Assembly: GCA_020137815.1 (NCBI GenBank)
Contig: CM035357.1
Span: forward strand, 4,712,001-4,776,000
Reading direction: 5' to 3'
DNA: 64,000 nt
Source: Hormiphora californensis
Lineage: Eukaryota; Animalia; Ctenophora
In this document: positions 22,626 to 57,750 of the stretch, piece by piece
Numbering within the stretch: the first letter of the stretch is position 1
How the letters are laid out: every line of letters begins with the position of its first letter
Translations under genes and position numbers: made by a program
Notes under the pieces: model-generated
What the model was told of the DNA's origin: nothing
The model's input: the letters and a program-made list of their open reading frames with translations, nothing else
Database searches by the model: none

Positions 22626-25600
22626 CTACGAGAACTCCAAATCCTCGCCATAGTAACTCTTGATAAGGAGGCTACCTCTGCAACAGTTCACAATCTCCAC
22701 CAACTCATCGTCATCCATGTGGTTACAATACTGCATGCTCACAAACCTACAGGGACGTATCATATATACGTGATATAGCTGGTGATAATGTCATCAACAA
22801 TCGATCATGATGGGGCTTGTGATGGCAGGCCCTTTCTGGGATATCAAACTGTACGATTTCATAATACCGGCCCATCTTGACACTAAAATTCAAAACTTAC
22901 CGTAAATCAGGAAGAAACTGTGCACTTCTTACTATAGAACCGTCCTGCAAAAAGGGATGGTTTTGAAATGTGTACAAACAAAGACTTCCTTGAGTGTCTT
23001 TGTACAACAAACGGAAATTTGATCACTCGGTACACAAAAGGCATACTCAACAATGGGTTTACGCTAGTTTGTTTGACCATATATTATTGCTCATTAATGT
23101 ACACCTTATTTAAAGTTCTCAACTAGGGTTAATTGAAACATGACCTCCCCACTAACCGGTAATGTAACCATCATCTTTCTAAAGCACTTCGTTGTGATTT
23201 GCTTGTGCCCGTCAATATTCAGCTTCTTCAGCCGTGGGCAGTGGGCCAAGAGTAGAGAAAGGTGGGGGTCTTTAACTCCAAACATCCAACTCATGTCTAG
23301 ATTTTCAAGGAGCGGTAGAGAAACTGCAAATGTGTTCCAAGCTGCTTCTGAACAGGGGGAGGGGGTTCAAGTGTTGATATAACAATGGTTTGCTGAACAA
23401 TGGATTACATAGGTGCATGTTGCATAAGTTGAAGAGATAGCGAGAGAAATTATACTACTTTCGGGGACTCAAATGACCTTAGAACTAGAATTAATATGAT
23501 AAGAAGAAGATGATCTAGAAAAATAATATTTTGCAGAAGACGAAGAAAGATCGAGGTATCATGAGAGCGTGGATAATATTTCTCAGTGCAGTAGCACAGA
23601 GTGAACCTATACAACGTGGTAAAACACCGTGTAGAGAGATACCATCGTATCCATTCACACCTACACGTTTTTAAAAACATATTTTTACCTGTTATCTCAG
23701 CGATTTGCGATAGATCGAGCACCCGCAGTTTGCTACATTTAGCAATAGCATTCAATGTTTTGGTACCGTACGCACATTGGCGAACTGTAGGGAGAGAGAC
23801 AGAGTGAGAGGGAGAGAGAGGGGGAGATTACTTAGTTTTAGAGGAGAAATTCCACTTGGTTTTAGAGGAGCAATCTTGGTTTTAGAGCAGGTAATCTGCG
23901 ACCAGGAATTGAATAATTTTTCTCTGTATACAAGTATTACCAAGCAGTGTTTGTAGCGAGGCCGAGTGTGCGGTAACCACGGCAGCGATCCCAGAATCCG
24001 TAATGTTGTCGCACCAATTTAAATTCAGCTCAACCAACTGAAAAGGAAAGGGGGAAATTGTCTCAATGACTGAAACAGAAAGGGGGAGGTTGTCTCTCAG
24101 TGACTGAAACAGAAAGGGGGAAGTTGTCTCAATGACTGAAATAAAAAGAGGGAAGTTGCCTCTCCGAAGTCAGACTACTACAAACCTTGCCCCGAAGTGC
24201 GAGCAGCCGAAGGGAAATATCTGTAATATAGGATTCAGCCACGCAAACTCGAGTTAAGTTGGAGTTAACACATCGCAATATGTCTACGTCGTATATCCAC
24301 GTCCCCATTGTATTTAGCTCTCTGTAGATTTAATACATTGGTTAAATGGCGTCGGGGACTTTGGAAGTCTAACAAGCACACTATTTTAGAACTAGTCGAA
24401 CTAGCACCCTTATATGGAGAAATTTGTGGAGGAATTTGGTTACGTTTTTATGATTTCAGGTCTGTAGATGGCCCTAAATTTGTGCTTTAGAGATAGTATG
24501 GTTTCTCTTTATAATGACCTAGTTAGTCCTTTTAGATTTCTCCCTAGCACATTATAACTTCTGGCAGGTCGGTAGAACTTCGACAGAATTTAGGGTAGGT
24601 CTGAATTTAGGGTAGGTCTGAATTTAGGGTAGGTCTGAATTTAGGGTAGGTCTGAATTTAGGGTAGGTCTGAATTTAGGGTAGGTCTGAATTTAGGGTAG
24701 GTCTGAATTTAGGGTAGGTCTAAATTTAGGGTAGGTCCGTAACGTATCGTTTATCAAAGCATTGCAATTCGACATTAGGTTCTGATTAGGTCGCTGAACC
24801 GCGTTCCGTATCTCGTATCAACTCATTGAAATTCGAGGTTAGACACAAATTAGGTCCCTGAACCACGTCTCGTATCTCGTATCAACTCATTGCAATTCGA
24901 TCTTAGTCACCGATTAGGTCGCTGAACCGCGTCCCGTATCTCGTATCAACTCATTGAAATTCGAGGTTAGACACAAATTAGGTCCCTGAACCACGTCTCG
25001 TATCTCGTATCAACTCATTGCAATTCGATCTTAGTCACCGATTAGGTCGCTGAACCTAATGGGTGACTAAGATCGAATTGAAATGAGTTGATACGAGATA
25101 CGGGACGCGGTTCAGGGACCTAATTTGTGTCTAACCTCGAATTCCAATGAGTTGATACGAGATACGGGACGTGGTTCAGTGACCTAATCGGTGACTAAGA
25201 TCGAATTGAAATGAGTTGATACGAGATACGGGACGCGGTTCAGCGACCTAATCGGTGACTAAGATCGAATTGCAATGAGTTGATACGAGATACGAGACGT
25301 GGTTCAGGGACTTAATTTGTGTCTAACCTCGAATTCCAATGAGTTGATACGAGATACGGGACGTGGTTCAGCGACCTAATCGGTGACTAAGATCGAATTG
25401 AAATGAGTTGATACGAGATACGGGACGCGGTTCAGGGACCTAATTTGTGTCTAACCTCGAATTTCAATGAGTTGATACGAGATACGGGACGTGGTTCAGC
25501 GACCTAATCGGTGACTAAGATCGAATTGAATTGAGTTGATACGAGATACGGGACGCGGTTCAGCGACCTAATCAGAACCTAATGTCGAATTGCAATGCTT

Positions 25601-28600
25601 TGATAAACGATACGTTACGGACCTACCCTAAATTCAGACCTACTCTAAATTCAGACCTACCCTAAATTCACCTACCCTAAATTCAGACCTACCCTAAATT
25701 CAGACCTACCCTAAATTCAGACCTACCCTAAATTCTGTCGAAGTTCTACCGACCTGCCTAACTTCTAGTACTTGATCTTGTGTAGTCGAGAAACCATACC
25801 TATAGACAGGTAAATAATTAACATTTCATTTTTAAATGTCTTCCTAACTTCCTCTGACTTATTCTAGCTCTATATAGCCTTAGACTGACTGGCGGTTAAG
25901 CGGTTCAATATAACATAGGAAAGACCAAGTGAATCAGTCGGTATATTTCGAAACTATCATTGCAAAATAACGAATTGGAGCCACTTGGTATTCCAAGGAT
26001 TAAATGAGCTGGGGGGACTCACGTGAGATTGTGGCGTGAGAAGTAGACTAACGGTGACTGCAAACCAGTTGCCTGTTCCAGAGTTAACGATTCAAGATCA
26101 GGACAAGCCTTAGCAATGAACTCAACCTGAAAATAATTTAACATTTTCAATCCGACCTTCAAATTCAAAAGATGCACATTTTGTGTCTCTTTCTCTCAAT
26201 ACTAAGTTAAAATGAATTAATAATCAATCTAAAGTACCAAAATTACTTTTTTTTCCCTTGATTTGATCAATCTAAAAAGTTGCCTCTTACCGTGTCATTA
26301 TCAAGGCAGGGCCAAGAAAGGCTGATAGAACGTAACCCTTTGTTAACCGCTACAAACCCCTTCAGAAGGGTCCGAGCTAGAAACTCAGTCTGATACTTGG
26401 TATTACACAGGGCCAGTTCTTCGATCTGCAAGTATGGGATAATTAGGGGTGGTTTAGGTGTAATGTGTCCCTGTAACCATGTAGTAACCATGGTAACTAG
26501 AATTCGATTTTGCTCTCTCTCTCTCTTTTCTATAGAACAAATCGAGATTAATTTCCAGTTAACTAGGTAACCCATTCAACTACCCTAAAACTACCCAAAA
26601 CTGTCATGCCCAAGCTGTAACCAGCTGGTAACAGTTAACTCTATCCTTTTCTCTTTACCTTTGGTCGGATTAAAAAGGGGCTGATTTATACAATGCACTT
26701 TTATTTTTCTTTCTATTTAGAATCAATAATAATAATAATTACCTTTGGGGTATAAGCGTAGGGACAACAAGAAGGACAGTGGGTGTATTTCCCGTGTTGC
26801 AGCAACAGTGAGACCTCAGATTTTAACAAAGTCACTAATTCTGGGGTGTCTTCCTCGGTCCCCCGGGTTTCAAGTTGGGGACTTGGAGGTCGGACAGGGG
26901 CAGGCATCGCCTCGTTCTGGAAAATATCTTCTCCATCAACAATTCGATCAGGAACAATATCTTGTTCCACCTCAACAAGTCGATCGGGAACTAAATCTTG
27001 TTCCCCTAGTTCGACAAGTCTGTCAGGACCAGCATCTTCTTCAATCTGAACGATTCCGGCTTGATCATCCTCGACAACATTATCCTCCACAAGTTGAATG
27101 TCAGCCACATCCTCAGTTAAAGGTCCCACATCATGTTGAATGTCAGCCATATCCTGAGCTAGAGGTCCCACATTATGTTCAGTTAAAGGTCCCACATTAT
27201 GTTCAGTCGGGGTGGTAGCGATGGGAGTCACATGATCCTCACTAATGTCTTCCTCCGCTGAATGATACTCCGTAGAAGTGGAACTGGTAGTTGAATCCAA
27301 GGATTTGTCCTGTGTTAGATGAGAGCTGGTGGATTGGGAGCCGGTTACAAAAGATTCAGCTGTAATCGTTGTATCTGCTGTTGTTCCTGACCCACTTTGA
27401 TTCATCTCAGCATCATTAGCACTAACCCCAGGTTCCTCTAAATCTTGAATCGTTGAAGATGCTTCTTGTGTTGGTTCTTCTGTCGCAGGAGATACAATAT
27501 CAGAAACGCGGTCCTGGTCCACTTGTTCTTCTTGATTTTGGATTTGACCCAGGTCTTGCTCTTCATGCTCCTGCTCCTGACCTTGCTCCCGTTCCCGTTC
27601 CTGACCTTGCTCCCTTTCCCGTTCTTGACCTTGCTCCTGCTCCCGTTCCTGCTCCTGATCTTGCTCCTGTTCCTGTTGACTCATTTCCGCGATTAGATCA
27701 TTTGAGAACTCACTCAAATGTCCGTGCATTTCCTTCATCCTATCCAGTTCATCCCTCTGTATTGCCTCCAACTGCAAAGAATGCCTGAGTTGTAGCCTCA
27801 ATAACTCATTTCGTGCTAATCTCCACCATTACCCTCTCCAAGGCTGACTTGTATTCTAAGACCCTGCCCAACAGCGGGCCCGGTGATACATCCTCACCCC
27901 CTGTTGATATGTAGTCAATAGCAACCAAACTCTCTAACACACCCCTAACTCCATCAATATTAACTGAAATGGCTGAGGAGACGGTACGGAATGAACGGTG
28001 ATGGTCGATATTGATGTCATCATAATCCTGATTTATAATGGCTCCCAGCTCGCGACACGACTTGGCACAATCACCCACCATTCCCTCTAGTAGGGTCCTG
28101 AGACGCAGTCTACAAATGTGAAGACAACTCTCCTTTTTATCGAAATCTTCCTCTGTAACAGGTATTTGGACAGTTGGTGGTACTACTGCTGTTGAGGATG
28201 AAGGCCCCGCCACTTCTTCTTCGCTTGTTGTATGTGATAGGAACGAGATTAGGAACCCACTCTGGCCCTCCAGCAGCTCACTCAGGTAGTGTAGGAGACG
28301 GGGCAGTGGGGGACAGGGTGATTCTTGCTCCTCCTGGTAAGCTTTACCTTTCCGTGTGGCCTGCCAGTGGGCATGACGGTGGGCGATGTCGATGTCGCAG
28401 CAGCAGGATAGCGGTTCTGGAACATCGAAGTCTTCGTCAAGGAACTTTTCTTTCCCTAGAGGATAGCAGGTTATTAGTTTATCAAAACCTTATGAATTTA
28501 ACTACTCAAGTATAATATTATTATATGTTAGATATAACTAGAGTAAACACACACATACACACACATTGAGCTCAATTTAGCTATTCTCCAACCCCCTCTA

Positions 28601-31600
28601 CTAAGATATAAATATGAAAGGTCGCCAGAATATTCATTGACAACATAATACGTGTACTCCCAGCTGTACTAGACATAATAGAGATGCGAGTTGTTACGCC
28701 TATCATTGTTTTTTAAATGTAATGGCAGCGATACTACGTCAGATATCACAAATTTCAATTTCAAGGTAAATCAATGAATTATTGATTCTCTCTATGATAC
28801 AAGTAGAAAACAAATGAATAACTAATTAGATTAAGTACCTTGGAATATTCCTGTTAGGTACCACAGGGCAGTACAGTAAATATCCACACACTGGTTCAGA
28901 ATTAACCGCCTCAAACTCGGTCCACAGAGCTCAACTAGTTTCCGAACAGCACGACTTGTAATTTTCATGCATCCAGTCAAATCCAGATCTAAAGATACGC
29001 GGAATTAGGAACAGTAATACGTATCTAGATTCTAGATTGAGAAATTAAAGGAGTATAGGACATCATTTCAGCCTGAGTAAATATTCAACTTTGTGGATTT
29101 AAAAGTTTAGGAAGCTGAGAAGTAACATTTGCCACAAACCTTCTAAGATGAGCCGTTTGTTTCCATAGCAACCACACTCGCCACACTGCACTCGGGTAGG
29201 TTGGACCATCACAAAGGCATCATCTGTTATCTGGCAGTGGGCCAGGTTGAGGGAAACCAACTGTGGACAACACTCCAGGATAACAGAACTAATATCAATA
29301 TCGGTGATGGATCGGCAGCACGAGAAGGAGAGGTGGGTGATGGTCGGACATGTTGGTCGGAGGCAGGGAAAGAAACCAGGCCACAGTGATACACCCGATA
29401 GATGTATTTCTTGAAGGTTTAAACATCTGAAAACAAGGGATCAATATACCATTTCCCAAACAACAATGCAACGGAACACCATCAAGTTCGTCCCACACTT
29501 TATAGCCTCCCTTTTTAAAACAAATATCAAATCAGAATGCTCAATGCGTCGCTCGAAACCAGGAGTTTTGAGAAAATCACATAAATGTTTGTATGTTTGT
29601 TTTCGCTGTGATCTGCGGTTTGCTAAGAACTCTAAATAGTTCTTTTGTAAAGGTAATGGACCAATTAAAATGTGTTCTGTCGCCGTTGACCACGTACCTC
29701 GAGAACAAATCATACAGTTTCTTCTTTTCTTTCACCCGAACAGTGGGTTTTGGATATATAACTGTACCCAGCATTTCTTCGCCCCTATTATTGTATTACG
29801 TACCTCGAGAACAGCTCATACAGTTGAGGTGAGTGCCCTCCTTGGTGGGAAATGTTTGAAAGGGTAACCTCTGTTGCCCCATTGTGTATCAATACTTTGG
29901 CGGCTTCGCTGAGCTCACGAGGTTTACACCAAGTCTCACACAGCTGTACCAAAACCTGAAATTATGAGAATAGCTTATTATTTATTAACTCATATCACTG
30001 ATCACATGGAAATGTGCTAAGAAATCAAGAGCACAAACTTATAATAATAATAATAATAATAATATCGAATATTTATATCCCGTATAATGCGTTAAATATG
30101 CTAGTTCACTACTCGTTTGAACTAGAACTAAAAGATATACTTAAAGAACATCGAGATTACTGTTAAAACTAACACCGCGTCTATAGCGGCCTTCTCAGAG
30201 CCAGAGAAATGCCATTTAAGCTATTTTGATAACAAGAAATAAAAATGAAGAAAGAAAGTTTAAGGGTACGCTAACCAAAAATTTTTTTCGAGTGCAGGGA
30301 AATCTCTCACCGTAGGGTTGCAGGCCATACCAAGGAGACCTCAAATATGCAATTTTAGCCCTTAAGTCGAATTCATATTTTTGCTACAGCTTTTTAAAAA
30401 TGTCCTGAAAATACGTTTTTGGCATCTCAAAAATTTTTTTTCAAAGATAGGAGCATGAAAATTTGGGGATTTGAAGAGGACATGAAGGTGAATACCACAA
30501 AAAAATTTTTTGCAATCCGAGCTGATTTCCGGTCCTGAGATGGATTTCTTTTTTTCCACTTAACGCCCTATTTGGCAAAGTTCCGAAAACATGTGAAAGC
30601 TGTAAATTGGTGAAAAGTTGCGTCTAACGATTATCTAAGTGGCCATAAATTTTGGGCGTGTCCTTATTTGAGATAAGCTGTACGGAGTTTTTTTTGTGAA
30701 AGCCGTCATTCAGAAATAAATAAATTCCCTGTATCTCAAAAACGGCTGATCGTAGGACCTGAGACTATGCTTAAACGATTCAGAAGGTCCGATTTTGGGG
30801 GGGTCTTCTGAGAGACATTTTGCTCCTACTTCAACCGTTTTTGTCTGTAATTGCGAAAAACAATAACCCATCTTCGCCATCGTGGATTTTTTGTGATTTT
30901 GTTTTTGATGATTATTATAGGGACCCATATGGACCAAATAGTGAAGGAATTAGCTTGTTAAACATTTTTCCATAGTTTCGGTCCTTTCTTAGCTAAAATT
31001 CCCTAATTACAGGATATGGAGTTTAGCTTTTGCCCTTTTCATAGAATTTGTTTTTCGCAATTACAGCAAAAACGGTTGAAGTAGGAGCAAAATGTCTCTC
31101 AGAAGACCCCCCCAAAATCGGACCTTCTGAATGTTTAAGCATAGTCTCAGGTCTCTACGATCAGCCGTTTTTGAGATACAGGGAATTTATTTATTCTGAA
31201 ATGACGGCTTTCAAAAAAAAATTCTGTACAGCTTATCTCAAATAAGGACGCCCAAAATTTATGGCCACTTAGATAATCGTTAGACGCAACTTTTCAACAA
31301 TTTACAGCTTTCACATGTTTTCGGAACTTTGCCAATAGGGCGTTAAAGTGGAAAAAAAGAAATCCATCTCAGGACCGGAAATCAGCTCGGATTGCAAAAA
31401 AAATTTTTGTGGTTATTCACCTTCATGTCCTCTTCAAATCCCCAAATTTTCATGCTCCTATCTTTGAAAAAAAGTTTTTGAGATGCCAAAAACTTATTTT
31501 CAGTTCATTTTTCAAGCAGCTGTAGCAAAATATGAATTCGACTTGAGAGCTCAAATTGCATATTTGAGGTCTCCTTGGCATGGCCTACAACCCTACGGTG

Positions 31601-34600
31601 AGAGATTTCCCTGCACTCGAAAAAAAATTTTGGTTAGCGTACCCTTAATCAGTGGAAGTAGTATAAAAAACATATGTGATAGTATTAAAAAAAAATAAAG
31701 AAAGATAGATAAATGTAATATTGTTAATAAGTCAGAATTAAGATGGAGCTAAGTTTAAAGGAAGTGGAAGTGTGAGGGAAGTGGAAGTGGAAGTGTGAGG
31801 GAAGTGGAAAAAGTTGAAAATGGTGAGTAAGGTGGATGAAGTGGAAAGGCAGTTTCTAAGGTTAAAAATTAAAGCGAGTACAATCAAATAGATGACAACA
31901 GCTAGGTAGCTTGAGTCAGATTGAAATACAGAGCGTTGATTGGAACAACATATTAAGGATTAAAAAGAATAAATTAGTGATTATAAAAAGAATAAGTTAG
32001 AACTTAGAATAAGTTGTTAGGTTATAAATAATGAAGTGATGTGATGTGATCGTTATGTCTTGTCTTTAGCTTGTCTTGTCTTTATTAGCACATATATAGT
32101 CAGCTCAAGGCCCCTGAGTTAGAAGGTACTAAGGGCAGGAGGGATTAAGAATTGGTCTTAGTCGTACGTGGCTGAGTCACTGCTTTATTATCTGGATAGG
32201 CAACGGGGAAAAGATGGGACTTCAAACATTCTTAAAAGTTTCAAGGGATGTTGTTCTTAGATTCTTTGGTAGTTTGTTCCATATTTAGGGCCGCAAACGC
32301 TGAACGCCTTCGAGTGGTAGATATTTGGTGTCATGGCGTTTTTTAATAGGGTCTATGTCCTCATCGAGACGTACTTTTCTAGACTTTGGCTGTCTGCGTG
32401 TAATCATGTCCGAAAGATACTCAGGCACAAGTCCATGTAGACATTGTAGACCAAGAGGCAAATTTGAACTGAATTCTTGCTCAACTGGAAGGAAATGGAG
32501 TTTCTTCGATTTCAGTAACTCCTGTCTCCCCTTTGATCCATACACGAATCTAACTGCACTGTTCTGTACCTTTTGTAGACGTTGCAAATCTCGTTTGAGA
32601 GTCCTATGAGTAGTCCATTTCCAAAGTCAAGCCTTGAATGAAGAGTTGATGAACAAGTTGGTATTTAGCTGTATAGAGAGTCCCTTTCTGATCCTCCATA
32701 GGTTTGCAAGCTGGCTCCAGCAGGACTGGATAACCGTGATACATTGTGATGACATCGTGAGAGTCTGATCAAACCAAATAACCTAAATTTCGAGCATCTG
32801 TGGATGGTTCGGTAGAGGTGTTGTCACTTTTTGCAGGAAGATCGACGTTGGATTAGGCGTCTTATCTGATTTATTATTGATAATTACTAATTCAGTTTTG
32901 CCTGCATTAAGTTTTAGATAGTTAGTGTTCATCCACCATTTGATGTGCTCAAGGCAATTTTGAACATTCTCGAAAATGATCTTCTCGTTAGTTGGATCAA
33001 AACTGATATACAATTGTGTATCGTCGGCGTCACATATGCACTTGTAGCCCCATAGACACCTGCAATGTCTTGCTCTCTCGTGTATACATAATAAAGAGGA
33101 TGGGACCCAGGATCGATCCCTGAGGGACCCTATCTCGATTCAATCGAAGGAGACCTCTCATCCCAATACTTACTGAAGATGTTCTGCCATTCAAATAGGA
33201 TCGAAACCACTCCAATGCAGTATGTTTGATGCATAGTGGTTATACAACTTATCTAACAAGGTGGCATGCTTACAGTATCAAAAGCAGCACTTAAATCAAG
33301 CAACAGTAGAATGACTTTTGTTTTGCTGTCCAAGAGAAAAAGGATGTCATTGAAGATCTTTAGTGTCGTGTTTCACACGAGTGGTACTTTCGGTAGGCTG
33401 ATTGCTTAGTGGGTAAGAGCTTATTTGCCTCTAAGTATTCGACCAGCTGTACAGATACACATTTTTCAACAACTTTTGAAATAAAGCTAAGATTGCTTAT
33501 CGGCCTATAACTGTTTAGCTCCTCAGAATCCAGGTCCTTACCCTTAATGACGGTCGAATGATGGCTTCTTTGAAGACTGATGGAAATTACCCTTTGTGAG
33601 GCTGTCGTTGACAATCCGAGAAATGCAGGAGTGAGCTCAGGGAGTCCGTCGTTAACCATACTTGAAGGATTGGATCCAAAGAACAATGCTTCTTGTTCAT
33701 ATCACGGATGATTCTGACCAGTTCTCATCAGTCACTGGTCTAAATTTGGAGAGAGTCGACGTGCAAATTTTGGCGTAGGCTGTATTTTAGGAGTTGGGAA
33801 TTTTCAGCTTCAATCACAGAGTATATTTTCGATACCTGTTTTAAAGAAACTCGTTAAACCTCGTCGTCAGTGGCATCGTTTCCTTTTGATGGCAGTGTTG
33901 AAGGTATTTTTTTTCTTTTCCAAGTAAGCTGTTAACTACTCTATGGGTAGATTTCGGATCACCTTTCCTCGATCGAGTTTCTTACTGACAAAACTGGCTC
34001 GAGCGTTGTTGAGAACTTTGGATGCAAATTTGCAGGTACTTTCCAACAGTGATATTTTGGAGCAAGCTTCTTTGGGTTTGTTTTCGTTAGACGAGCACGT
34101 TTCCAGCGTCGCTCAGCTCCTCTGCGTACTCGTCGTGCATTTTGACAAGCTGGTGTTGTCTGATCCATTGGGGCTGGTCTGGGTTCTTTATTTTCTTTTT
34201 CTTCCTCGGTGGCAATTTCATCAGTTATTGACTTTAGAGTTGGTTGTATAGAAGAACACATTCTCCTTGGTCGGAAGGTAGCGTTCAGCAAGCTTGGAGC
34301 CTCGAATGAGTTCACGAAGATCCTCTGGTTCAACTCCTTTGAAATTTCTGCACTTCATCATTACCTCATCCTCCTTTCTTTTAAGCAGTATACCGGCCCT
34401 GCATTTTACTAAATAATGATCTGGAGCGGGGGCCACAGGATAGGATTCAATCTCAGTTATTTCGATACACTGGCAAACTATCAAATAAATTGGAATATGC
34501 TCTTCACTGGTTTCATCAGGTTTACCGCAGAACGGGGACCAATGGGGTCAGATAGCGAAACAGTATTCTTGTCTTGGGTAAGGATAAGATCTAGTGTGCC

Positions 34601-36697
34601 ACCTTTGAGTGGGTCGGACAGTTACTTTATTTTTCCATCCGAACTGGTTCAGAAGTTCATTGAATTTCGAGCTTGGGGGTCCTGGTTGTCCTCGACATGA
34701 ATATTAAAGTTCCGCATATTGACAGCGCTCTTTCCTCTCTGCTAATTTCAGAATAGATCCTCTAGTTCATCTAGAAACGCTGTAAAATTGCCCGAAGTGC
34801 CAGGCCGGTACACGACAACTATCCTGGTGTTTAGTAGGTTTGAGGAGAACCTCAAGGCATTCAAACTGCTTAAACTTGTGACAATACTTACTTGTTTTCG
34901 TCCTCCTTCTGGTAACTAAAGCTACACCACCTCCTCTACCTACACGTGGATGTGATACTATGTTGAAACCTGCTTCTTTGAAAAGAGCACAGAGAGCACC
35001 ATCGTCCTTTTTCATCCATGTTTCAGTGAGTGCGAAAGTATCCAAGTCTTCATCTACAGCGAGTTCCAGGATGTCAATCGCTTTATTCCTCAGTGAAAAG
35101 CAATTCAGGAGACCAAAATTCAGCCATCTGGATACAATTAGTTTTTTGACAGGTACTGGAGACGGATGGGACACGTTGGATCAGCTGCGTTATGAGTATG
35201 AGCAAATGAATGAATGGATGGGTGTCGTGATTTAGCACAATTCGAACATTTAAAGGCAGAATATTTTTCTTGTTAGGGCATTCTCTGGCTACGTGTTTTT
35301 CTGAACAACGGAAACAGGTCGGGTCACTCGCTTTACACTCAACTTGCATAATGTCCGAAGCCTTGACACTTGAAACACTGTTTTACATACACTCTCTTTC
35401 TACAAAACAGTTGTAGTTACCAACGTGAATAGAGCCACTGCCAAGAATCAGATCGCCAATAGGTTTGCTGACCTTCAACCCAATAGTGGCTTCATTCTCA
35501 TTTCGACTATACCTCTGAAACGACACAACAGACATCTTCTCTCCTCTTTCCAACAACTCGGCAACTCTTGGGTTTAGCTCACAAATAGAATCTAATATCA
35601 TTGTATCCGTCTCATCCCTGTCAGTAATATGCTTAGGAATAAAAGAAACATCAGCACCTCGAATAGATAATTTAGGCTCATGTACAAACTTTTTCACACC
35701 AACATTCACATTTTCAGATGCAACCTTTGTTGCTGCCTTGTTCATTTCGTCAGCAGTTTTGAACCAATACTGTACTGATCCGTCTTTCTGGTTCTTCTTA
35801 TACTCGGTGGGAATCTTGGCAAGTACATCATTAGCACTGTTGATATCGTCAGCTTCTCCAGATATAACTAGCGTGCACTGCCCAAATGAGCTTCAGAATA
35901 AGGCACAGATAGGGCACATTGTTTGCCATCAGCGGCTGCAATTGGCTCTATTTGTTTGGCAACTTCGGTAGAAACGGTTGATGTTATAATAGTTGCGATT
36001 GTTCCTCAAACTTCCCTAGCATTGATTGCTCAAATGTCGCCAGTTTATCCTCAAGAATCCTCTGTGTTAGAGGGGATGGCTCATCGTCCTTTTATTACAG
36101 GCAGGACAGAACCAAGCCAGACCCTCGTTCTGGTGTTATAAGGGCACACATTCTGTCATCATCCAGCGTCTTAGGACACGAATTGTTACGGCACGTGATT
36201 GTAGTTCTCCAGTTACAGTTGATGGTGCATTGGAGAACGCGTCAGTTTGGGCATTTACTAGCTCTTCGGACAGTTTATATGCCTTTTTTAGGAGCTTTAA
36301 CAGGACTCACGCGTTGGGTTGTCGGAAGCGGGCTTGTGAGGACCTTTTACGACATAGGTTAGCAGTCCTTTTCCCTCTAGTTCATTCTTCAGGCTTGCCA
36401 ACTGATCGCTCAGCTTTATCATCTTCTCTGTGTTCTTCATGACTATCGATGTCAGGGATTTCGTGTTTATCTGCCCTTCGGGGCGGTCACATAGCATTCA
36501 TCTTCCTCAAATTAATTTGTTTAAAGTAGTGTTGAAAAGTTTGAAACTTTACAATTTAACTCTGCAGAAACATCTTCAGGAAGATAGCAATCCTCCTTTC
36601 CTTCTACCAGGGATATCAGTGCACTCTGGTGTGGTGTAAAAAGGGTATCTCGAACTAGAGTTTTCTGTGCCAGGAGCTTGAGTGATGGAGGGAACAT
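22626..36697 (-). CDS. Leucine-rich-repeat (AMN1/FBXL-type LRR) protein with N-terminal BC-box/Cul2-box-like motif and a large acidic insertion
   Basis: Proposed first exon MFPPSLKLLAQKTL...LPEDVSAE|VLVQL. LRR exons CPQLVSLNLAHCQITDDA, LDLTGCMKITSRAV, LVELNLNWCDNITDSG, CSKLRVLDLSQIAEIT, CPRLKKLNIDGHKQIT. Last exon ends ..YYGEDLEFS*. First-exon link is inferred across the LINE. Confidence 0.7.
24563..25758. mobile_element. Foldback-type DNA element, ~1.2 kb, with 8-bp TSD TAACTTCT
   Basis: GGCAGGTCGGTAGAAC...GTTCTACCGACCTGCC termini; arms built from 18-bp (gaatttagggtaggtct) and ~53-bp tandem units; TSD at 24555-24562 and 25759-25766. Confidence 0.9.
30264..31644. mobile_element. Non-autonomous TTAA-flanked DNA element with ~600-bp TIRs (Kolobok-like GG termini), nested in the LINE 3' region
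   Basis: TTAA|GGGTACGCTAACC...GGTTAGCGTACCC|TTAA; arms ~30264-30860 and ~31045-31644 are reverse complements. Confidence 0.85.
36506..36549 (-). other. Spliced-leader-like sequence AAGTTTCAAACTTTTCAACACTACTTTAAACAAATTAATTTGAG at the LINE 5' end
   Basis: Matches my recollection of the ctenophore (Pleurobrachia) SL exon ending ...AATTTGAG. It is followed by LINE ORF1, not by the GT donor and Sm site of an SL RNA gene. Confidence 0.7.
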
Positions 36698-37467
36698 TGT
36701 TTGATTTCAAGATCTCTACTGAGCCCATGACCGATGCTTTTTACATCACTACCTGCCAGCTAAAACGGCAGAAAGTTTCAATAAAGTCACAAATTCATTT
36801 CATTGGAATTATGTACATTTCCCAATTCCCGGATCAAAGCTGGCCTGTTTGGCCTATGCTAGAAGCCGTGGAAAACGCGCGCACTTGGGGTCTGCAGCGC
36901 ATGCCAACTGGCCTGTTCGTTGCACAAAAACTGAAAACGCTTAGTAAAAAACTTTAAAAAAACAACGTCTGGATGAACTGCATGAAGTTTTAATTTCGTA
37001 GCACGGTACGCGCACAAACCAAAAAGCGCGGCATAAGCTTGCAACGCAACTCCTAAAAATACGCGTCGGCAGCGATTTCTCTCTTTTTTTAATTGAAATT
37101 ATATGACATATGTAGATTGATTCTCAACCTTGGTTTATATGGGTTGGAGGTCAAGTCAAACAACGAGTTACTATAAATCAACTGTTGGCGTAAACTGTGT
37201 GTACAAAAAGGGAACATGTTAAAAATCGTTAGAAAAGCTAAAAAACTCATGATAATATCTTTGAGTGACAAAGTGTTACTGAAAAACGAACACAAACCGG
37301 AACCCAACATATAATTTAATCCTGTCTCAGGAAAGTCCTCTCCAGCTCAACAGAAAAAATTGATCAAAGATCATTGATCCGATGACCGATTCCGTTTCTT
37401 CTAAAAAAGAATTCAATAGACACTTTAGAGTCAACTTTGAGGCATTGATCTCTATCATTTTCCTTGT

Positions 37468-40400
37468 TTACTTCTTCTCGACATAGTACTGGGTAGGAAC
37501 GAAGGGCATGGCCACTTTGGTCGCAGGGAAAACCTTCTTACGCACTTGGACCTGAAAAAGGCACATTGGTGAATGAGTTACACAGGGTAAGCGGACTCTA
37601 GTGCTAAAATCACGAAAAGCGAACTCGAGATTTCGGCCGTTAGGCCGGAAACGAGAGTTTGCTGTGCCTCTATACTCGTTTATAAGTGTTAGGGCCGTTA
37701 TTTGGGTTCGAGGTTAGGGGTTAGTGTAAAGGTTAGGGTTAGATAAAGAGTCCTCCTTGGGTTTAGATATAGTAATAGAGTCCGTTAGCACTAGAGTCCG
37801 CCTACCGTTACACAGCACTTGACTAGAGTCCATTTTGAACAGAATTTGAATTTTTGGTAAGTTGAATGACTGCTGTCAGGCCAATGCTCTGAACACGGTT
37901 CTCGGGTGCAGAACATTTAGTTGAAGAAATGAGAATATGGTCTGGCCAATGCTCTGGCAAAATGACTGTTTGTTAGTATTTCAAGATATATATTATTTCA
38001 ATACTATTTCAAGTTGTCTCACCTGTAGAGATGTTCCGTTTTTGATGTACCCAATATCCACATACCCCATTGCAATATTCTGACCGGTACAGGGGGAGGG
38101 AGATCCACTCGTTACCTCACCTATGGAGGGGGAGTGAGGGTTACTTACTTTGGTTACTTTGAGAGTTTTAGTAGATCCTCTAGATCCACTAGGCCATCCT
38201 TTGCATAGAACCACCCATACGCCACCAATCAAGTAAGGAATTATTGTTTGCTGCAGTATAACCATCGATAGGTGGACGATCAGGAATTGTATCGAGGTGT
38301 CTTTGGAGTGCAGTCTTGAACGATGTTAGAGGAACCGCTAATGTAACACGTGCAGGTAGAGTGTTCCATAGCTTAGGGGCCTTCACCGAGAAGCTGTTTT
38401 CGTAAAGCGTACGAGAGCGTTTAGTGAGAAGTGTACGATCAGGGGAGGGGGATACACCGCACGGATGCTCTTGGAGAGGGGATTGAACTTTATGGAGCCA
38501 GGAGCTAGGCCGTGAAGAATCTTCCAGCAATGGATAATTGAGTATCGCTCTCGCGCGTCTCTGTAGAGACATTATACCAAGGTTCAAAAGCCGATCCCAG
38601 TAGTCGGTGCCAGCTGATCAATTTTGGCAACGAAGGAGCGCTGAACAACTTTCAAGAGTCCTAATGTCTGCAAGGGTGTAAGGATCCCAGAGAGGACACA
38701 CATATTCTAAGTGGCTTCTGACGAGGGCTTTGTAAAGGGTAAGCATAGTTGTCTTATCCCTGGCCCGGAAAACACTAAGAGCCCAGCTTGCCATCTTCTT
38801 GCCCTGGCTAGCCAGATTGGATATATGCTGAGAACCAGAAAGCGGCGGATTGAACAGTGAAACCCAGGTCCTTGACAAATTCCTTCTCCTCTAACAGGCC
38901 ATCATCAGGGAGGACGTACTTCCTAAAATTGTCGATGAAAGGGAGATGACGAAGGAGTGACCGATTTTCATTGAAGGGCTCTGAGATGAGTAGATCGAAT
39001 TATTCGGGTGTAGTTTCATGTTGTTGAATGAGGACCATGTTAAGTAGCATCGAGGTCCTCCTGAAGATCCAGGACATCCTGCTGGCAACTGATCCTCTTG
39101 CTAAGTCGGGTATCGTCAGCAAAGCGACCAACCTTTGAATGAGATATCGCCAAATCCAGGTCGTTCACAAAGAGGATGAAAAGAATAGGGGCCAGAACGG
39201 TCCCTTGGGGGACACCGCTGATGATAGTAATAGGTCTTGAACTAGCTCCTTGAACAGTAACAGTTTGCGTTCGACCAGAAAGGAATGATGATATCCAGTC
39301 AACAATTATGGTGGGAATCCATAAGCATGGAGTTTCTTCAGTAGAAGGTTATGGTCAATGGAATCAAAAGCTTTTTGATAGTCCAGGTAAATGGTATCTG
39401 TAGCTACACCTTCTAAAGAACATCTATAACGTCACCTGATGGTCAAGAAGTTGTGTCAGCAAACTCTTCCACTACGGAAACCGTGCTGGTTGGGGAAAGC
39501 AGGTTGTTTTTTTCCACATGTCAACAAAATGCTTCCTGACGACCCTTTCAAAGCATTTGACAACATGTGACGTCAAGGAAATAGGCCGATAGTTTCCAGG
39601 GTCAGATGTGGGACCCTTCTTGTGCAGAGGTAATATAGTTGCCCGTTTGTAGAACACAGGGACTGTCCTAATTTCAAGTGACGTTTTCCAAATTTTGATA
39701 GGGGGGTAGCGAGTTCAACACAGCAGTGTTTAGTAGTAGAGCAGGTTTACCATCAGGGCCGATCCGGAACTGGTTTCAGGTCTTTCAGGACAGTTATGAT
39801 ATCGGCATGAATGTCAGTCTGTAACATGTCGGGGAAAGGGAACTGAGGTACTGTTTCGGGCAGTCCACTGAAGGCCTCAGCTTTAGGATCACTGAAGGAG
39901 GAAGAGAATTTAGACTGAAGGAGGTCTGCCATAGCTACAGGTCAGTGACTGCAGAGCCATCAGGGTCAAAGAGCAGCTTGATGGAGAATCGAGCGGTTAA
40001 GATGATTAGCGTAATTAAAGAAAACTTTGGGATTTAGTTTTAAGTTTCGATCACCTTCTGTTCACGAGACTCAATTTTGTTCACGATTGCCTGGGCCATT
40101 TCCTCCTCTAGGGCAACGAGTTTTCTCTGGGCTGAACTGAGAGCAGCTGGGTTGGAAGTAGGGACGGACATGAGAGCAGCTATCTTTGCTTTGACGCGTG
40201 GGGAGTGATGGGAGGTACAACAGGGGGAGGGAGATCCACTAGTTACCTCACCTATCATGGAGGGGGAGTGAGGGGAGGGGAGTGAGGGGGAGTGATGGGA
40301 GGTACAACAGGGGGAGGGAGATCCACTTGTTACCTCACCTATGGAGGGGGAGTGAGGGGAGGGGAGTGAGGGGGAGTGATGGGAGGTACAACAGGGGGAT

Positions 40401-55844: not shown

Positions 55845-57750
55845 TTACAAGTTTACAAGTTTACAATAAAAGTTTTAGTGTACACAACAGGCCTTCCCTT
55901 AGTGGGTCCACCTAAATAAATTAAACACGTATCACCTCTCAGCCACTCTCAGACATTTACAGCACATTGAGGGGAAATATCGTTGGGAAGTGATGGATAG
56001 CCTCTGACAGTGGGACGGTCATAAAAGCCTGTCAAGTAATTGCCCAGGGATGATTTGAATTGACCTAAGCTTCCGCAAGAGTTAACGGTCGCTGGCAACC
56101 TGTTCCACAGGCGAGCAGCTCTCGGTCCGAAGGAAGAATGGTACTGATTCGCTCTCCAGGTCTCAGCCCGATAAGGAAACACTGGTGGGACTAACCTCAT
56201 ACCCAGCCTTGCACTGTGTTGGAACACAAGATTTGCAGAATTCGGAACAAACCCATGGATCGTCTTCCACACATGTATCAACATGTAACGTTGTCTCCTA
56301 CGTTGAAGAGACATCAGGTTGAGAACTTTTAATCTCTCCCAATAGTCGAGATTCTGCATTCCATCAAGTCTTCTAGTAAAACACCGTTGGACGTTCTCAA
56401 TTGACTTGATGTCCCCAGACTTTGACGGATCCCAGACCAGACAACAATACTCCAAAATTGGTCTGACCAGTGATTTGAAGAGTTGCAACATTACCTCTGG
56501 TGAACGATCTCGAAAAACACTGAAAATCCACCCAGATAGGAGAGAGGCTCTCCTCACAATGGTGGCAATGTGCTTAGACCAAGAACCATCCGAGGACATC
56601 TGGACACCCAAGTCACGGACATCAGCTTCAGGAAACAGTTGTACTCCAGATTTTGTGGTATACGAACATATGTCAACTGAAAAAGGGAATTCCTTGTAGA
56701 TTGCCGACTTGTTCAGTCTGTAACTCAGGAGTTGAAATTTCTGATCATGTAGCACCATATTGTTTATCTTGGCCCATTCTGTAACCTTCAAAAGATCAGA
56801 TTGTAAACCCTCCTGATCAACAATATCTGTTATGGCTTTCATTAACTTGGTATCATCCGCAAAGGTGAGACACATACTACCATCCAGTACAGATTCCAGG
56901 TCCAGTATATAAATAAGGAAGAGGAGAGGGCCCAGGACACTACCCTGCGCCACCCCGCTGAGCACCTCCACCCATGGTGACCTAACCCCATCCACCATCA
57001 CACACTGCTGCCTGCCCAGGATCCACGCACTGATCCACTGATGAAGTTTTCCTCCAATCCCGTACCTTTTCAACTTAGCTAGCAACACATTGATATCCAC
57101 AGAGTCAAAAGCTTTAGAAAAGTCTAAATAGAGAACATCAACTTCTCTATCTCCACAGAGTTCAGTTAGGATGTAGTCAACATGAGATAACAGTTGGGAC
57201 ATAGTGCTACGTCCCTTTCGAAAACCGTGTTGCGTTTCACTCTGTAACTGCATCTCATCCAAATAATCAGCTATTCTCTTTCTGACTAGCCGCTCAAACA
57301 CCTTCGATAGGTGACTGGTGATCGACACAGGGCGATAATTTGCCGTCGTAGACTTCGACCCTTTCTTAAAGATCGGTGTTATGAACTGCTGCTTTAAACA
57401 ATTTGGAACAGCCCCATCTTCAAATGACTTGTTCCATAACATCCATATAGGATAAGACAAGCTGCTGTTACATCGTTTCAGAATGCACGAAGGAATGCAG
57501 CCCGGAGGTGAGGCCGAAAAGGGTTTAAGCTCCTCTAGTGTACTCTGGATACAATTCTGTGAAAAATCCATGGTCGTCAGGATCTCACCAAGGTCCTCAA
57601 TGTTACCTGCTGCCACAGAGGGATCAATAGCCGCCGGATTGCTGAAGACGCTAGCAAACTGGTGTTGTAGTAGGTTAGCCTTCTCCAGGGGGTCCACAGT
57701 TAAGGAACCATCCGCACGCTCAAGGGGGGCAACTGATGATTTAACCTTTA
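55845..57750 (-). mobile_element. 5'-truncated CR1-like LINE with an open RT frame (ORF 55949-57805)
   Basis: NYRPVSITSHLSKVFER, QHGFRKGRST, YLDFSKAFDSV, SGVAQGSVLGPLLF, FADD; (GTAAACTT)-type tail near 55845-55866. Confidence 0.92.

Follow-up and report, generated by a model that had tools for sequence, protein, structure and literature searches.

The window analysed here, a 64,000-nt stretch of Hormiphora californensis DNA (assembly GCA_020137815.1, contig CM035357.1, positions 4,712,001 to 4,776,000), carries a near full-length APE-RT LINE that is fused to a spliced-leader (SL) exon. The element resides in the first intron of an LRR gene and in the same orientation as the gene; the sense orientation is known from this locus alone. 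The features of the locus, in window coordinates, are as follows.

36548..36697, minus strand: coding exon 1 of the LRR host gene (89% to the ortholog P0100, residues 1-47)
36506..36549, minus strand: SL exon forming the 5' end of the element (43/44 to the published SL; first 6 bases, AAGTTT, common with the target site)
36487..36501, minus strand: 4-codon uORF directly 3' of the SL (from translation and element comparison)
36470..36486, minus strand: conserved motif that includes a 4-bp GC hairpin after the uORF stop, common to elements with unrelated ORF1s
35138..36497, minus strand: ORF1, with a PHD-like N-terminal part and three CCHC-type knuckles (from translation); frameshifted in the assembly
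32129..35174, minus strand: ORF2, AP endonuclease and reverse transcriptase (homology to P0002; Pfam fragments below cut-off)
30063..32128, minus strand: 3' UTR of the LINE, split by a nested element (contig joins, multi-copy depth)
30260..31648, no strand assigned: nested non-autonomous, high-copy DNA transposon (1,389 bp, inverted repeats of about 600 bp, TTAA at both ends)
30042..30062, minus strand: (TTA)7 tail (from sequence)
30035..30040, minus strand: 3' copy of AAGTTT, a 6-bp target duplication and/or 5' microhomology with the SL
29803..29955, minus strand: coding exon 2 of the LRR host gene (94% to P0100, residues 46-97), preceded by a TTTCAG acceptor

As the original prediction held, the element begins on the minus strand with an SL 44-mer (36549-36506), which is the sole copy in the window (1 match versus 0 in 100 shuffles). 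Aligned to the published SL of Hormiphora californensis, it agrees at 43 of 44 bases and differs at base 1 alone, and its bases 2-44 match at 100% the true SL gene in contig L022, where the SL is followed by GTAAG in a 778-bp tandem with 5S rRNA. This match and the presence of the sequence on many mRNA 5' ends (23 SL-capped mRNA contigs) identify the 44-mer as a ctenophore SL exon, as had been proposed, and dispose of the concern that it might not be the leader of this species. The LINE junction sits precisely on the SL exon border: the sequence that comes next is GAAGATG and then the LINE, not the GT donor and SL intron of an SL RNA gene. Nor were an SL intron, a 5S gene or an SL promoter found on either side of the element, which upholds the predicted lack of SL gene context. 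An Rfam search of the whole window returned nothing, ribozymes included. The single RNA-type run (X8) reached only the SL bin of the window, with contigs that had many different neighbours; no RNA contigs of the LINE body were found, a result with no bearing on expression.

The body of the element is that of an APE-type non-LTR retrotransposon (LINE), with the predicted CCHC-bearing ORF1, APE-RT ORF2 and (TTA)n tail all confirmed and multi-copy contig depth in the 3' UTR (30151-30160). ORF1 starts at 36497 or 36440, ends at 35138 and is, over parts, 36% identical to the ORF1 of L031 and 32% to that of L007; Pfam gave nothing above cut-off for it, and a homology search with its N-terminus gave no match. 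ORF2 is 85% identical across 977 codons to P0002, an intact relative of 1027 aa, with 0 in-frame stops and 46 frameshifts, and the frameshifts in both ORFs are probably long-read indel errors. P0002 carries PF03372, PF14529 and PF00078 and, among the precomputed families, no RLE domain. A PDB search returned distant R2 proteins only, and the ORF2 motif LLDLSAAFDT is one that we take to be L2-like (CR1 group). The 3' UTR is interrupted by the nested element at 30260-31648, which had escaped the original prediction and whose TTAA ends suggest a piggyBac-like transposon; contigs link 30259 to 31645 with this element absent.

The AAGTTT expected at both junctions is there (36549-36544 and 30040-30035). 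The ortholog P0100 connects the first LRR exon straight to the second, and removing the element would leave an LRR intron, of 83 nt (donor AAA/GT, within the AAGTTT repeat) or 95 nt (exon-end position of the ortholog, where the window has no GT) rather than the predicted length of about 100 nt; the 3' end of the first exon is at 36560 or 36548. In sample S1, the filled-junction contig had depths of 13.5 and 36.2 against exon depths of 43.2 and 49.6, and a further contig beyond those listed added a depth of about 33-35 at 36556-36579. These depths fit a polymorphic insertion but do not show one, and the empty-site allele itself did not turn up directly. Both window junctions recur in contigs of independent DNA runs, with the tail region 30030-30071 masked in the comparison and one joint there dropped; the SL portion in these contigs is 26-28 bases, below the 31-letter bridging threshold.

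Independent contigs also indicate that the SL head is not peculiar to this copy. The junction contig of run X3 (36467-36533) had 0 differences and a depth of 198.9, against 49.6 for the host exon. Since this approximates the sum of the 5' contigs of two subfamilies (73.9 + 121.9 = 195.8), most full-length copies of the window family look SL-headed, with the caveat that contig depth is not copy number; by the same depths, one hemizygous non-SL copy would lie within noise and a homozygous one is not favoured. For two DNA samples, each run has 15-25 contigs that exit the 3' end of the SL into differing sequences and many that exit at SL bases 2-4 into differing flanks. Run X7, from another organism, gave low-complexity matches only.

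An exact scan of metagenome contigs with a 29-mer of the SL, in which decayed SL heads and non-SL heads are uncountable, returned 34 loci: 23 SL-capped mRNAs, one SL gene/5S array and 10 SL-headed retroelements, three of which have flanks of at most 6 nt and could be cDNA. Thus, apart from mRNA-like contigs, 10 of 11 SL-bearing loci are retroelement heads and one is an SL gene array. No processed host-mRNA copy with a long genomic flank was among the 34 loci, and in five loci Rfam found nothing above noise but 5S rRNA. The retroelements span at least three distant lineages (22-42% endonuclease identity among P0002 of the window family, the L007 group and L020), and the relatives carry intact ORFs. 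Each is without just 1-9 bases at the SL 5' end. All 11 element junctions (11/11) fall precisely on the SL exon border with zero SL intron bases, at a position fixed within a family, and none of the 11 shows a recognisable second, tandem SL relic. Six elements with long 5' UTRs have a common junction position, though their UTRs are merely 34-81% alike, and their SL heads have zero mismatches to the SL gene across 35-43 bases, an identity partly conditioned by the exact-match search. SL scans of viral and prokaryote contigs gave 0 matches, a search of viral contigs with P0002 gave none, and an Atlas search with the L032 protein returned only ctenophore clusters and one lead below 0.9. The prediction that other genomic copies would be SL-headed was therefore borne out by sister copies and other families, and not countered, among these contigs, by full-length copies with a long non-SL 5' UTR. 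The identity of the SL, the exon-border junction and the distant SL-headed families lend good support to the central claim, that the LINE RNA was trans-spliced and then reverse transcribed; judged from sequence, the SL head very probably has this origin.

The sequence past the SL bears on the claim that the LINE is promoter-less. ATGs lie within 10 nt of the SL as predicted (at +5 and +9), but the +5 ATG opens the 4-codon uORF and is not an ORF1 start. In the window group, 5/5 elements have a uORF, 1-4 codons long, that ends at the motif, versus 1/23 SL-capped mRNAs. The non-coding motif itself is conserved 15-27 nt 3' of the SL in five elements with unrelated ORF1s, with no hairpin covariation among the elements compared, and the roughly 6-fold rise in contig depth across 36460-36495 points to a motif common to further families. 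Readthrough of the uORF stop was rejected as a general rule, since uORF and long ORF share a frame in L016 and L032 and not in the window, L031 or L020. Furthermore, six SL-headed relatives have ATG-free 5' UTRs of 145-215 nt. The uORF-hairpin or these UTRs could hold promoter elements, which weakens the original argument that there is no 5' UTR for an internal promoter. That the window LINE lacks a promoter of its own is possible, though somewhat less likely than not.

The conserved motif and the ATG-free UTRs also favour a rival explanation, in which trans-splicing gave each lineage its SL a single time and the SL has since been a fixed head, with an internal (downstream) promoter in the uORF-hairpin or the T-rich UTR that starts transcription at or near SL +1 and no re-splicing. 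Host introns of the window end in TTTCAG, and a TTT(C/T)AG persists 6 nt past the SL in L016, L020 and L032; its retention, in a form too short to judge as a tandem relic, counts against use, since use of the site should erase the motif. There are precedents as well: SL relics have been proposed as promoters in Symbiodinium, and trypanosome L1Tc is reported to have an internal promoter and unspliced RNA. However, a loss of 1-9 SL bases is seen in every copy and would wear down a fixed head, and the heads equal the present SL gene while the adjoining UTRs have diverged. Likewise, in run X1, 264 of 361 aligned contigs are at least 99% alike, in a set that includes SL genes and host exon contigs. 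We consider this explanation unlikely. Also improbable is that the SL-headed copies are dead-end retrocopies of a master element with its own promoter and outron, whose RNA is in part trans-spliced as mRNAs are, and of which only unspliced RNA founds active copies. A related family (X1 record 3 and X3 record 11; depths 138 and 185) agrees with the first 50 nt as far as the AG and continues upstream of it for 48-58 non-SL letters, so that it may be an unspliced, outron-bearing form. In line with such a master, the Hydra data place the SL on about 30% of TE Iso-Seq reads versus 48% of other reads, and the genomic RNA of the C. elegans LTR element Cer1 evades trans-splicing. Yet the X3 SL-junction depth covers all of the 5' depth of the two subfamilies, and the ORFs of SL-headed relatives are intact.

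Template switching or ligation to SL RNA, as in U6-L1-type chimeras, or a chimera of the assembly is very improbable. SnRNA-headed chimeras and Tx1-Mar heads are known, and many assembly indel errors lie within the element; against this, the junctions are confined to the exon border, are fixed within families and recur, for both ends of the window element, in independent DNA runs. Switching to the whole SL RNA is contradicted by the 11/11 exon-border junctions. Scarcely credible is an element that targets SL RNA genes, with the SL as host target sequence: such elements exist (NeSL, SLACS and CRE), but membership in their group was rejected, as P0002 has no RLE domain and no SL gene halves flank the LINE, whose endonuclease is APE, whose 3' flank is low-depth host intron and whose relatives have upstream flanks unlike each other and the SL gene flank, save a short repeat common to L032 and the window.

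The explanation that we favour as a whole, and that is probably correct, is SL-trans-spliced LINE RNA reverse transcribed almost to the cap in a cycle that likely repeats; recurrence of the cycle from each new copy has a somewhat better than even chance. The LINE copy would be read through by a transcript begun upstream of it, in the window the identically oriented LRR pre-mRNA. The final AG of the genomic SL would act as trans-splice acceptor, bases 4 to 42 of that SL being free of AG. A fresh, full SL would then substitute the old one, setting the RNA's 5' end, capping it and mending the erosion of the prior round. Starting on the (TTA)n tail, target-primed reverse transcription would get to SL base 2-10, and the window copy may have been joined via the AAGTTT match between SL and target. 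The likely role of the uORF-hairpin is to tune translation or splicing. Nine of the 23 SL-capped mRNAs retain another AG within 6 nt past the junction, which agrees with choice of the first AG. Against the proposed cycle, GAG is as a rule a weak splice acceptor.

It is possible, if somewhat doubtful, that several unrelated ctenophore LINE lineages gave up their own promoter and 5' end, with the SL as a self-regenerating acceptor that turns read-through into capped full-length RNA, and that a large share of the reported genomic SLs would then be LINE heads. Because 10/11 non-mRNA SL loci are retroelement heads, many of the genomic SL copies that run into the hundreds in published ctenophore counts (718 in Hormiphora, 491 in Mnemiopsis) may be LINE heads and not SL genes. 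A LINE must rebuild a promoter-bearing 5' end each round, and two ways of doing so are known: an internal promoter, or a ribozyme that cuts the element out of a host transcript. Host trans-splicing, if the cycle is true, would be a third way of renewing the 5' end. Transposition would then follow the supply of SL snRNP, active insertions would be sense ones in transcribed regions, and LINE heads would track SL evolution between species.

R2 and other ribozyme-processed non-LTR elements use a self-cleaving ribozyme and, in R2, a fixed rDNA site. As in R2, the promoter problem would be met by excision from a host transcript; unlike R2, the window LINE would be processed by the host spliceosome. 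Slamovits and Keeling are said in later papers to have described mRNA recycling in dinoflagellates in 2008. Work on dinoflagellate retrogenes with SL relics (Jaeckisch et al., 2011, PMC3229502; Song et al., 2017, PMC5585692) likewise describes trans-spliced RNA that is reverse transcribed, an SL that turns genomic and a relic AG that is the next acceptor. Dinoflagellates recycle host genes in this way, with the first AG as acceptor and an accumulation of truncated relics in tandem, whereas the ctenophore cargo is the retroelement itself, a genomic SL at the retrocopy 5' end occurs without tandem truncated relics, and the final AG would regenerate the 5' end. In the main texts of the open-access literature we came across no description of SL-headed LINE families in a genome, and the main text on Oikopleura Tor elements leaves trans-splicing unmentioned (PMC4402516). 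In Hydra, TE transcripts, full-length CR1 included, are SL trans-spliced (PMC12220107 and preprint), so that there too an animal LINE RNA receives the host SL; the accessible text of that study treats the RNA level only, with no genomic SL-headed copies or recycling model. NeSL, SLACS and CRE are also non-LTR elements adjoining an SL exon, yet they are RLE elements specific to SL genes (PMC4640811), whereas the window LINE has an APE, is found like its relatives in unrelated locations and has the SL for a 5' end of its own. SINEU, Tx1-Mar with U1/U2 heads and U6-L1 chimeras similarly bear small-RNA-derived sequence at the 5' end, ascribed to template switching (PMC4494074); unlike these, the ctenophore head is exactly the trans-splicing exon, in several distant families.

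The LINE in intron 1 of the LRR gene begins with a 44-mer that occurs once in the 64-kb window and matches 43 of 44 bases of the Hormiphora californensis SL printed in PMC8527503; according to that paper, the SL occurs 718 times in the Hormiphora genome and 491 times in that of Mnemiopsis. Further, all 606 contigs of an RNA-type run (X8, labelled with the same species as the DNA runs) that aligned to the window fell in the SL bin, and their neighbouring sequences were many and varied. The match and the varied neighbours identify the 44-mer as the animal's own SL, as originally predicted. The element is organized as follows:

36549, minus strand: 5' end of the element, starting with the 44-mer
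36501-36487, minus strand: uORF of 4 codons, directly after the SL
36486-36470, minus strand: GC hairpin motif after the uORF
to 35138, minus strand: ORF1, upstream of ORF2
35174-32129, minus strand: ORF2 (APE-RT), 85% identical over 977 codons to P0002, an intact 1027-aa relative
between ORF2 and tail, minus strand: 3' UTR containing a nested inverted-repeat element
30062-30042, minus strand: (TTA)7 tail
30040-30035, minus strand: 3' copy of AAGTTT

We infer that AAGTTT at both junctions is a 6-bp duplication with 5' microhomology. The repeat overlaps SL bases 1-6 (bases 2-6 are common to element and target) and, therefore, bases 7-44 are certainly element-derived. Relative to P0002, ORF2 carries 46 frameshifts (36 of them one missing base) and no in-frame stops. 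Because read contigs also differ from the window far more by gaps than by substitutions (e.g., 2 substitutions and 10 gaps over 620 bp), the ORF breaks probably reflect errors in the assembly, and the copy is likely to be young. The 1,389-bp TTAA-flanked element in the 3' UTR is absent from other LINE copies (contig joint 30259-31645); this nested element (30260-31648) is very high-copy, with inverted repeats of ~600 bp. Two more RT-bearing LINE fragments lie on the minus strand (38267-39696 and 55964-57496), with no SL close to either.

The host gene lies on the same strand as the LINE. In protein comparisons, its ortholog P0100 has no break between the exons at 36697 and 29955, which places the LINE in intron 1, at most 12 nt from the intron's 5' end. 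Removing the element would leave a single intron, as anticipated, yet of 83 or 95 nt (95 counted from sequence) rather than ~100 nt. Exon 1 of P0100 ends in ...SAE, where the window lacks a GT (36560-36548); the next in-phase GT is 12 nt on, within AAGTTT, and the exon 1 donor may have shifted in Hormiphora. Another LRR gene intron sequence (24586-25735) is a large, foldback-like palindrome of 64-bp tandem units between inverted 17-bp arrays.

A true SL gene array was recovered in metagenome locus L022 (SL RNA gene and 5S rRNA unit at 263-381, 692-735, 1041-1159 and 1470-1513), where GTAAG follows the SL, and where the SL gene and a co-oriented 5S rRNA form a 778-bp tandem repeat. Neither GTAAG nor a 5S rRNA unit was found on the flanks of the window SL, in the window or the compared flanks. 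The window SL is not part of an SL RNA gene, and an SL-gene-targeted insertion is very unlikely, in agreement with the absence of SL gene context noted originally.

SL heads recur in other copies and families, again in line with the original prediction. In DNA run X3, the LINE 5' end is covered by two subfamily contigs (depths 73.9 and 121.9) that enter a single contig (36467-36533) identical to the window, at depth 198.9 against 49.6 for the host exon, contig depth not being copy number. Contigs from a second sample (X5 and X6, records 20 and 29) also run into the SL, and X1 and X3 contain the host-exon-to-SL junction (36524-36583). Junction contigs hold 26-28 SL bases (record 20, 15), under the 31-letter bridging bar, as expected at a repeat edge. 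Among the matches listed, 15-25 contigs per run exit the SL 3' end into differing sequences in all four DNA runs, and about 11-28 exit at SL bases 2-4 into differing flanks. Against an SL-headed reading of the sister copies, two contigs of a related family (X1 record 3 and X3 record 11) match the first 50 nt as far as the AG and then run on for 58 and 48 letters that did not align to the SL. In the window, a short repeat of high copy number (36868-36908) sits ~320 bp upstream of the SL; in L032 (409-449; 88% over 41 nt) this distance is 13 bp, and X3 and X5 contigs also link the repeat to the SL start (joint 36550-36860); it may be a preferred target, a promoter-like element or just common.

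An exact scan of metagenome contigs with the last 29 SL bases, its reach excluding decayed and non-SL heads, returned 34 loci: 23 with the SL at a contig end plus host-type coding sequence, the SL gene array, and 10 retroelements. Pfam APE matches were obtained for all five ORF2 pieces tested (L007, L008, L015, L034, L020), L003 and L021 contain the beginning of a related APE, and the L031 ORF1 is 36% identical to that of the window over about 100 residues. L016 and L032, in which no RT was seen, encode related ORF1-like proteins and L032 ends in (TAA)n; we infer that both are retroelements. These short elements (L032:462-1621 and L016) carry only the ORF1-like protein, with (TAA)n ~95 nt past the stop in L032, and are possibly a non-autonomous family. 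Endonuclease identity among the three lineages (the window family with P0002, the L007 group and L020) is 22-42%. In each of the 11 elements, that of the window included, the first SL base present lies between 2 and 10, and every junction coincides with the SL exon border. Upstream flanks of 17-461 nt, mutually unrelated, are present in 7 of the 10 loci; the other three have ≤6 nt and could be cDNA. A GT after the SL creates a donor-like AG/GT junction in L015 (20-55, oriented) and L021 (158-195). SL-headed LINEs are real, family-wide and found in several LINE lineages.

The exact exon borders, the fixed junction per family and starts ≤10 nt from the SL 5' end argue strongly that the heads derive from trans-spliced RNA reverse transcribed nearly to the cap. 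Five elements (window, L016, L020, L031, L032) share a 1-4-codon uORF with the hairpin motif after its stop, and three of them retain TTT(C/T)AG between SL and uORF; among 23 SL-capped mRNAs, one has such a uORF and one other a loose hairpin pattern. The remaining six elements have ATG-free UTRs of 145-215 nt that are 34-81% alike. Together these 5' regions leave room for promoter elements, so the argument that no 5' UTR could hold one fails, although the promoter-less conclusion may still hold. The SL heads have kept the sequence of the SL gene while the adjoining UTRs drifted; a fixed head combined with an internal promoter seems unlikely. Judging from sequence, we lean toward a recurrent cycle of SL replacement, in which the genomic SL would have to be replaced at its final AG. 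AG occurs in the SL only at bases 2-3 and 43-44, and 9 of the 23 mRNAs still have a further AG no more than 6 nt from the junction, consistent with first-AG choice. None of the 606 X8 contigs, all in the SL bin, represents the LINE body. That the SL-headed copies are dead-end retrocopies of an outron-bearing master is about as unlikely as a fixed head.

Related processes are described in several sources. Transposable element RNA is SL trans-spliced in Hydra (PMC12220107 and a preprint), as is a subgenomic RNA of the C. elegans element Cer1 (PMC3315495), and SL-capped mRNA is recycled into genes in dinoflagellates (PMC5585692, PMC3229502, PMC3942190). Elements that target SL genes are RLE-type (PMC4640811), and the snRNA heads of Tx1-Mar and SINEU are attributed to template switching (PMC4494074). 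We found nothing further for this comparison in PMC7986045, PMC6053224, PMC4402516 and PMC11453091, and the open-access literature searched yielded no account of LINE families whose genomic copies start with an SL exon. A promoter-less cycle is plausible on the sequence evidence, and the SL-headed LINEs are a new variety of known RNA recycling.
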